Made by a program: the position numbers and the translations under genes. A stretch of 64,000 bases of DNA. It comes from Escherichia phage Pu-Krd-SF1. The notes below the pieces were generated by a model. The model saw only the letters and a program-made list of their open reading frames with translations. It was not told the origin of the DNA and did not search any database. This document shows, in pieces, positions 48,271 to 48,333 of the stretch. The stretch's first letter is position 1. Each line of letters begins with the position of its first letter. The stretch lies in the sequence record PQ249395; one strand, written 5' to 3'.

Positions 48271-48294
48271 AGTCTCCTTCGGGAGACTTTTTTC
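48271..48294 (+). terminator. intrinsic terminator (AGUCUCC-UUCG-GGAGACU plus U6)
   Basis: 7-bp stem, UUCG tetraloop, TTTTTT. Confidence 0.7.
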
Positions 48295-48303
48295 ATTTTA
48301 CCG

Positions 48304-48333
48304 GTTTACTTTCCATTTGAGCTGTGATACTAT
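48304..48333 (+). promoter_or_regulatory. early promoter (GTTTAC-N18-TACTAT)
   Basis: Directly after terminator (PeSL-like cassette). Confidence 0.55.

Follow-up and report, generated by a model that had tools for sequence, protein, structure and literature searches.

Setting of the promoters in the window

The window, the whole stretch of 64,000 nucleotides of Escherichia phage Pu-Krd-SF1 DNA analysed here, carries between rI.-1 and a mobD.5 homologue a putative intrinsic terminator, followed by a promoter sequence of the T4 early type. Both elements belong to a region (30-64 kb) which, as judged from the annotation of the record and by comparison to T4, corresponds to the gene 2-to-nrdD part of T4 and is collinear with it. 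Here the region is read on the + strand, and in the T4 map its counterpart is on the reverse strand, at roughly 76 to 43 kb. It is in this stretch that T4 has its classic block of non-essential early genes. Positions 46,000-54,000 showed 100% identity to Escherichia phage Pu-Krd-SF6 (PQ759886.1), a Tequatrovirus, and approximately 97% identity to many other Tequatrovirus genomes; matches to this region were found in roughly 500 genomes of the genus. No promoter or terminator features are annotated across the corresponding region of the T4 GenBank record (AF158101), and a comparison of 30-64 kb with Rfam gave tRNAs only. The elements listed in Table 1 are useful for the annotation of Pu-Krd-SF1, whose deposited record has no regulatory features.

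Several differences in gene content with respect to T4 were observed in the region. The T4 order is e, ipIII, ipII, denV, vs.8, and at 40984-42373 the order found here was e, a 93-aa IP-like ORF, denV, a 59-aa ORF, an ipII homologue and vs.8, so that denV lies upstream of ipII; the entire 1.4-kb block is missing in RB14. An ORF of 188 aa (36715-37281), found neither in T4 nor in T2, starts with MKTYAEFL, resembling the leader that targets internal proteins to the capsid; it lacks an early promoter motif, and a terminator-like hairpin of its own follows it (37286-37312). The homing-endonuclease gene mobD (49901-50680) appears to be split into ORFs of 75 and 147 aa within the same 780 bp that the intact mobD occupies in T4, and is probably a decayed copy; several relatives bear an unrelated replacement in this position. 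Two other homing-endonuclease genes are insertions with respect to T4, namely an HNH gene occupying the position of the T4 tRNA-Gln (34281-34889) and a gene localised between gene 49 and nrdD (60616-61437). The nrdD gene itself (61428-63245) does not have the intron with I-TevII that is present in T4 nrdD.

Table 1. Coordinates of the predicted promoters, terminators and related elements. Rows beginning with "Early promoter" are the 13 strong sites of the weight matrix; all positions are those of the window.
Feature	Position	Strand	Downstream gene	Remarks
Early promoter, ATTTAC variant	32920..32949	+	internal-protein gene at 32986	alignable from the -35 through first codons MKTYQEF
Early promoter	33259..33288	+	internal-protein gene at 33319	begins directly past preceding stop codon
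Early promoter	33640..33679	+	trna.4 (ATG 33698)	predicted hairpin spans -10, arms 33650-33660 / 33670-33679, z -3.3
Terminator-like hairpin	37286..37312	+		AAATCCCTATC / GATAGGGATTT, then TT; after inserted ORF 36715-37281; 135 nt 5' of 37448
Early promoter	37448..37477	+	e.8 (ATG 37521)	terminator-like hairpin 135 nt upstream
Early promoter, variant	37787..37816	+	58-aa ORF at 37853	GTGTAC...TGTTATTAT; left edge of gene replacement vs T4
Weak promoter-like site	38006..38035	+	e.6	GTTTAC-N18-TACTCT, no TG; positional counterpart of T4 Pe69.9
Early promoter	41267..41321	+	denV (ATG 41324)	spacer TTCCTCCAAGG predicted to pair with SD-containing CTTGGAGGAA; z -4.3, duplex -19.8
Degenerate cassette	42010..42039	+	ipII homologue	GTTTAC and TGG kept; -10 decayed to TAATAA; TATCAAAACAAA leader conserved
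Early promoter, -10 TAGTAT	42376..42428	+	vs.8-like gene	predicted spacer-to-UTR hairpin
Early promoter	44484..44537	+	regB (ATG 44541)	spacer predicted to pair with SD region AAGAGGAG; z -5.8
Intrinsic terminator (predicted)	48271..48294	+		after rI.-1 (stop 48264-48266); stem AGTCTCC / GGAGACT, UUCG loop, T-tract
Early promoter	48304..48333	+	mobD.5 homologue	-35 GTTTAC 48304-48309, TG 48325-48326, -10 TACTAT 48328-48333
Leader of the mobD.5 homologue (promoter 48304)	predicted start 48340; SD 48350-48355; ATG 48362	+	mobD.5 homologue	SD GAGGAG
Early promoter	49095..49138	+	mobD.2 (ATG 49153)	predicted 13-bp hairpin across -10, z -4.6; orthologue of T4 Pe57954
Intrinsic terminator (predicted)	51676..51702	+		after nrdC.11; stem AGGGAGCC / GGCTCCCT, UUCG loop, T7 tract
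Early promoter	51726..51755	+	nrdC.10 (ATG 51790)	upstream A/T tract ATTTTTTCACAAAAC; predicted start 51762
Early promoter	53165..53219	+	nrdC.8 (ATG 53223)	spacer predicted to pair with SD-containing ACGGAGGAAC; z -4.35
Early promoter, -10 TATAAT	56154..56183	+	nrdC.4 (ATG 56212)	overlaps nrdC.5 stop codon

Recurrence and identity of the promoter motif

An initial annotation of this DNA had counted at least 13 copies of the motif GTTTAC-N18-TA(C/T)TAT. When it was searched literally (GTTTAC-N18-TAYTAT), seven copies were found, all of them on the + strand, against 0.03 expected from shuffled sequences (none of 100 shuffles reached seven), and 17 matches against 1.4 expected were obtained when one mismatch was permitted. 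The weight-matrix search that had been proposed was carried out with a matrix built from the sites and iterated, and it gave exactly 13 strong sites, whose scores were far above those of shuffled sequence (Table 1). The figure of "at least 13" is therefore valid only if variants of the -10 (TATAAT, TATAGT, TAGTAT and TATTAT) and of the -35 (ATTTAC and GTGTAC) are allowed. The strong sites spanned 32.9 to 56.2 kb, all of them on the + strand, and none was present in the first 32 kb or in the late-gene part of the window. A two-block matrix recovered the same 13 sites plus two weak ones (40889 and 42010), and its top score (31.6) corresponded to the site at 48304.

As had been claimed, the sites precede accessory genes: all 13 were localised upstream of non-essential early genes, at 57-112 nt from the annotated start codon, with Shine-Dalgarno (SD) sequences of the GGAG type at those starts. 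The spacing between the -35 and the -10 was identical in the 13 sites and corresponds to a spacer of 17 bp if the hexamers are counted in the usual way, and an extended -10 (TGn) was present in 12 of them, the exception being the site at 44484, which has TAG where T4 has TGG. The start region TATCAA(A/C), which had been described as frequent, was found in six of the 13 strong sites and also in the degenerate site at 42010; the remaining strong sites lack the full string, and the shorter ATCAA is localised six bases past the -10 in eight of the 13.

The A/T content 5' of the -35 ranged from 61 to 80% against a background of 65%, so that an UP element is visible at some sites only, with clear tracts at, for example, 37448, 51726 and 44484. 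The upstream tract reported to be common to 37448 and 51726 was confirmed as a 14-mer (ATTTTTTCACAAAAC), and the 18-mer reported to be identical around the -10 of 32920 and 33640 turned out to be part of an identical 24-mer (GTAGTGATACTATTACCCTATCAA). This was also the longest exact identity between any two cassettes (24 nt); in register, the identity was 33-71% over 70 nt, and the IP-type cassettes could be aligned across about 100 bp, from the -35 into the first codons.

Two weak promoter-like sites were localised within coding sequence, one at 59580-59609 (GTTTAC-N18-TATAAT, no TG), 41 nt 5' of pin, and the other at 40889-40918 (GTTAAC-N18-TATAAT with TGG), near the end of gene e. T4 counterparts exist for both.

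A scan with a generic sigma-70 consensus was uninformative, giving 76 hits against 67-74 in shuffled sequence, which is what would be seen if the motif recurred through composition or by chance in DNA rich in A+T and had no function. The specific motif, however, exceeded its expectation as described above (seven against 0.03), and it is confined to a single strand, is kept at a fixed distance from the start codons and is also conserved in T4 and other genera, at the orthologous positions. Statistics and conservation thus refute the chance reading, to which we assign practically no probability, and it was rejected.

T4 early promoters are composed of an UP element, a -35, a TGn and a -10, and are recognised by the unmodified host sigma-70 polymerase (PMC2988021). 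The -35 GTTTAC, the TGn, the -10 and, at some sites, the A/T tract found here match this published anatomy. The same motif is present in T4 at orthologous positions (for the promoter at 48304, the G is at AF158101 58780), and in more distantly related T4-like genomes, belonging to other genera, it was likewise found on the coding strand before the same genes. Transcription starts were predicted with the rule that the start is G+36, that is, 7 nt past the -10. Applied to the T4 reference, this rule gave 57,954, which is the promoter named Pe57954, as well as 41,225, given in the literature as the start of the Pe40.4 unit, and 69,931, which fits Pe69.9 (PMC6024815); no use of these Pe coordinate names was found in the literature beyond that paper. 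T4 regB has been described in the literature as having a typical early promoter, whose orthologue here is the site at 44484. The initial description of the sites as T4-type early promoters was right in this respect, the consensus published for the T4/PST promoter-early-stem-loop (PeSL) cassettes, TTTACW-N17-TAYWAT (PMC4122927), being the same motif.

In T4 middle promoters a MotA box centred at -30, (a/t)(a/t)(a/t)TGCTTtA, takes the place of the -35. [quoted passage not shown] Having no MotA box, the sites were not accepted as middle promoters, a reading that we consider very improbable.

Their sequence and position, together with their orthology to promoters named in T4, indicate that the sites are one-gene promoters for non-essential early genes, and the activity of the promoters and terminators listed here is predicted from T4 orthology and consensus. 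Host RNA polymerase would bind the -35 GTTTAC, the 17-bp spacer, the extended -10 TGn and the -10 TA(C/T)(T/A)AT, and transcription would begin some 36 nt past the G, in most cases with the A of ATCAA. In this way, each promoter would give a separate burst of transcription, immediately post-infection, for one non-essential early gene, the genes served being those of internal proteins, trna.4, e.8, denV, regB and the mobD.x and nrdC.x ORFs.

Terminators and hairpins around the promoters

The UUCG-tetraloop terminators that had been noticed before the promoters at 48304 and 51726 are real hairpins with T-tracts, with a dG of -10.8 (z -5.4) for the hairpin at 48271-48288 and of -16.2 (z -3.6) for that at 51676-51695. 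Both have the features of rho-independent terminators, namely a G+C-rich stem-loop, a U-tract and a location 3' of a stop codon. The two terminators are conserved in T4, T2, RB14 and Ac3, the hairpin at 48271-48294 being identical in the four phages, and independent annotators have labelled both as terminators in the Ac3 record. In the nrdC.11/nrdC.10 junction, a terminator is kept with different stem sequences in T2, L013, L021, L034 and L036 and in other genera.

A third C(UUCG)G hairpin (GGGGCUUCGGCCCC, dG -12.7) was observed at 38672-38687, between e.6 and e.5 and directly 5' of the e.5 SD; since it has no U-tract and abuts the SD, the usual criteria do not identify it as a terminator. Hairpins with C(UUCG)G tetraloops were reportedly described in T4 intercistronic regions by Tuerk et al. 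in 1988. Both terminators, like the hairpin at 38672-38687, have a C(UUCG)G loop, and we regard the three as ordinary examples of such hairpins, with no difference from those of T4.

A terminator was found directly 5' of the promoter in only two of the 13 sites (48304 and 51726). For the other 11 sites, the best hairpin within the 70 nt 5' of the promoter was near the background median (-5.15 kcal/mol) or weaker, with values between 0 and -7.0, and eight promoters start at the preceding stop codon or no more than 3 nt past it, which leaves no space for a terminator. The statement that several promoters follow a terminator was thus correct for these two and not for the other 11, and with the stem-loop layout at two of 13 sites the expression "recurrent terminator-plus-promoter cassettes" is an overstatement. 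In relatives, an upstream terminator was present at 32 of 167 early-promoter-like sites.

Folds were computed for each promoter from the -35 to the start codon. Unusually stable ones were predicted at 33640, 41267, 44484, 49095 and 53165 (z -3.3 to -5.8), together with a long hairpin at 42376, so that six early promoters would be embedded in hairpins, a feature that the initial annotation had not noticed (33650-33679, 41273-41321, 42382-42428, 44490-44537, 49101-49138 and 53175-53219). In the six hairpins the 5' arm is formed by the spacer between the -35 and the -10 and the 3' arm is localised within the 5'UTR. The SD is contained in the 3' arm in four of them, those of denV (41267), the vs.8-like gene (42376), regB (44484) and nrdC.8 (53165), and in these four the predicted transcription start falls at or before the 3' arm. 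The hairpins at 33640 and 49095 stop short of the SD, and a model based on the ribosome-binding site does not account for these two. The possibility that the hairpins spanning the -10 were terminators was rejected, as no U-tract follows them.

In a MAFFT column alignment of the regB promoters of different genera, the arms of the hairpin were not in register. Because the arms slide between lineages, the column-wise covariation test failed, and an alignment-free comparison of cognate with swapped spacers was used instead. Pairing of -14 kcal/mol or lower between cognate spacer and UTR was found in 24.6% of 167 unique promoter-like sites of relatives, compared with 2.0% when the spacers were swapped between sites and 1.0% when they were shuffled, these counts being drawn from related genomes and thus not phylogenetically independent. 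Across genera, the regB promoters have at least seven different arm sequences and the pairing was kept in all of them, and in the mobD.2 hairpin (49095) a compensatory change from G-C to A-T was found between T4 and this phage. Among the relatives, two of the 32 sites that have a terminator upstream carried the hairpin, as against 39 of the 135 that have none (p 0.006); in the window the corresponding values were 0 of 2 and 6 of 11.

These distributions suggest two layouts by which the early promoters may be insulated. In the first (48304 and 51726), an intrinsic terminator with a UUCG loop would precede the promoter in a PeSL-like manner, and in the second, at the six other promoters, the spacer would be complementary to the 5'UTR and would cover the SD in four of them. 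According to the G+36 rule, the transcript from a gene's own promoter would not contain the 5' arm, and a read-through transcript coming from upstream would contain both arms. We infer that in transcripts reading through from promoters further upstream the ribosome-binding site would be sequestered by the fold, and that the transcripts from the gene's own promoter, devoid of the 5' arm, would be translatable and open to cleavage by RegB. That insulation by a terminator and insulation by an anti-SD arm encoded in the spacer are mutually exclusive, with translation and RegB cleavage occurring only from own-promoter transcripts, and that this arrangement is both real and undescribed, is a possible but rather doubtful reading of the predicted folds. 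Within this reading, the spacer-arm device may belong to roughly a quarter of the early promoters and may have been kept by compensatory change across genera.

No description of an early-promoter version of an SD-hiding hairpin was found in the accessible literature, and the spacer/UTR hairpins are the sole part of these results that may add something new. If confirmed, early promoters embedded in SD-hiding hairpins would refine how T4-type phages tie the expression of an early gene to its own promoter.

Rearrangement breakpoints and comparison with known systems

A PeSL cassette is made up, by definition, of a stem-loop terminator, A/T-rich sequence, a strong promoter of the early class, an SD and the start codon (PMC2839356, PMC4122927), and PeSL systems have been described for RB49/phi1, PST/T4 and nt-1/KVP40 (Arbiol 2010, PMC2839356; Comeau 2014, PMC4122927). 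The initial annotation had proposed that the elements of the window match these cassettes, for which a role in modular gene shuffling has been put forward. As regards the match, it stands for the promoter part, which has the same consensus, and for the terminator-plus-promoter layout only at the two sites mentioned above.

The comparison of cassette boundaries with breakpoints was carried out between the window and nine relatives (T4, RB14, T2, Ac3 and five metagenomic Tequatrovirus contigs), and gave 60 distinct breakpoints. Eighteen of them fell in 15 cassette intervals that make up 7.4% of the region (p 2e-7). This enrichment with respect to random positions was not significant when the promoter-bearing junctions were compared with the other gene junctions, as a breakpoint was present in 9 of 15 of the former and in 18 of 47 of the latter (odds ratio 2.4, Fisher p 0.12). 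Many breakpoints corresponded to homing-endonuclease insertions or to plain gene junctions, and six promoters, including that at 48304, showed no rearrangement in any of the nine relatives.

Local examples of exchange at the cassettes were nevertheless clear. In the IP locus, breakpoints were localised at 33006, 33276, 33340 and 33658, and the conserved unit extends from the -35 into the first codons. The swap of e.7 and ORF58 is bounded by 37784 and 38017-38057, that is, by two promoters, and further breakpoints inside cassettes were found at 41266, 42376, 42406 and 42428 as well as at 51676, 51691 and 51779. An identical 30-bp promoter precedes an IP gene in T4 and L005, denV in Ac3 and L004, and the vs.8-like gene here (42376), and in these contexts the homology stops 17-24 nt past the -10. 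In the nrdC.8 promoter of one metagenomic relative, L006 (IMGVR_UViG_2974787500_000001), the sequence from the -10 to +1 was TATTATTACCCT, of the trna.4/IP type, and not TACTATACAACT; the differences, six in number and clustered, point to gene conversion between two cassettes separated by about 20 kb.

These observations bear on whether the elements are primarily mobile PeSLs, whose homology would shuffle accessory genes by recombination, including the excision and insertion of mini-circles, with the promoter activity travelling along. The identity of the motif with the published T4/PST consensus (PMC4122927), the 18 of 60 breakpoints within 7.4% of the sequence, the single 30-bp promoter found before three different genes and the possible gene conversion marked by the TATTATTACCCT patch are in agreement with such a role. 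Against it, the stem-loop that defines these cassettes is present upstream of only two of the 13 sites, the homology is short (at most 24 nt exact, and 33-71% in register over 70 nt), the promoter-bearing junctions did not differ significantly from the others, and many of the breakpoints are homing-endonuclease insertions or plain junctions. In addition, functional conservation of a promoter would by itself end alignments inside it, and the six promoters that include 48304 are stable across the nine relatives. We consider it unlikely that mobility is the primary role.

The 15-24-nt identities common to cassettes at gene boundaries would make them occasional junctions for swaps, so that, as a secondary role, the cassettes may sometimes act as junctions for gene exchange between related phages. 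The swap-junction role was seen at some loci and not as a general rule; it has already been published for T4/PST, and here the examples support it and the statistics at the level of junctions do not. The proposal of cassette-mediated shuffling is thus sustained by the IP locus, the e.7/ORF58 swap and the 30-bp promoter and not by the comparison of junctions, and the present sample provides a sober check on the PeSL idea, with clear examples and yet promoter junctions that are not significantly more rearranged than others.

Taken as a whole, the results are very probably explained by sigma-70-dependent early promoters of the T4 type, with two insulation layouts and with occasional use as junctions for gene swaps. 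The underlying observation is real, although it was over-counted when the motif is read literally and the term "terminator-plus-promoter" fits two sites. To judge from their sequences, these elements are early promoters and intrinsic terminators of the ordinary T4 kind, with orthologues already known in T4; what has been obtained is a re-identification of T4 early promoters and of two terminators in a close relative of T4, with little at stake.

Compared with the T4 early promoters (Pe57954, Pe69.9 and the regB promoter), the sites of this phage are orthologous and have the same -35 GTTTAC, TGn, -10, spacing, strand and gene context. Nothing essential differs, except that TACTAT is more frequent than TATAAT in this phage and that there are site-specific gains and losses with respect to T4, such as the promoters before the relocated denV and the 58-aa ORF and the decayed copy at 42010. 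With the PeSL cassettes, the sites have in common the promoter consensus, the SD and ATG at the 3' end, the location in variable non-essential regions and several breakpoints inside, and at 48304 and 51726 the succession of stem-loop, A/T tract and promoter is complete. In contrast, 11 of 13 sites have no upstream stem-loop, and the PeSL unit is conserved over roughly 100 bp whereas the exact identity here is at most 24 nt and only the IP-type cassettes can be aligned over about 100 bp.

The closest counterpart of the spacer/UTR hairpins is found in the T4 genes e, soc, 49 and I-TevI, in which a late promoter is localised in or next to the 5' arm of an SD-sequestering hairpin (PMC3014915, section 29). 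As predicted here, the SD is hidden in the long transcripts of these genes and the transcript of the proximal promoter does not have the 5' arm. In the e, soc, 49 and I-TevI cases, however, the promoters are late (TATAAATA) and the device delays translation, whereas the promoters embedded in the predicted hairpins of this phage are early and the 5' arm is the spacer between the -35 and the -10 itself. Unlike those cases, the promoter-in-hairpin arrangement is widespread here, being found in approximately a quarter of the early-promoter-like sites of the relatives.
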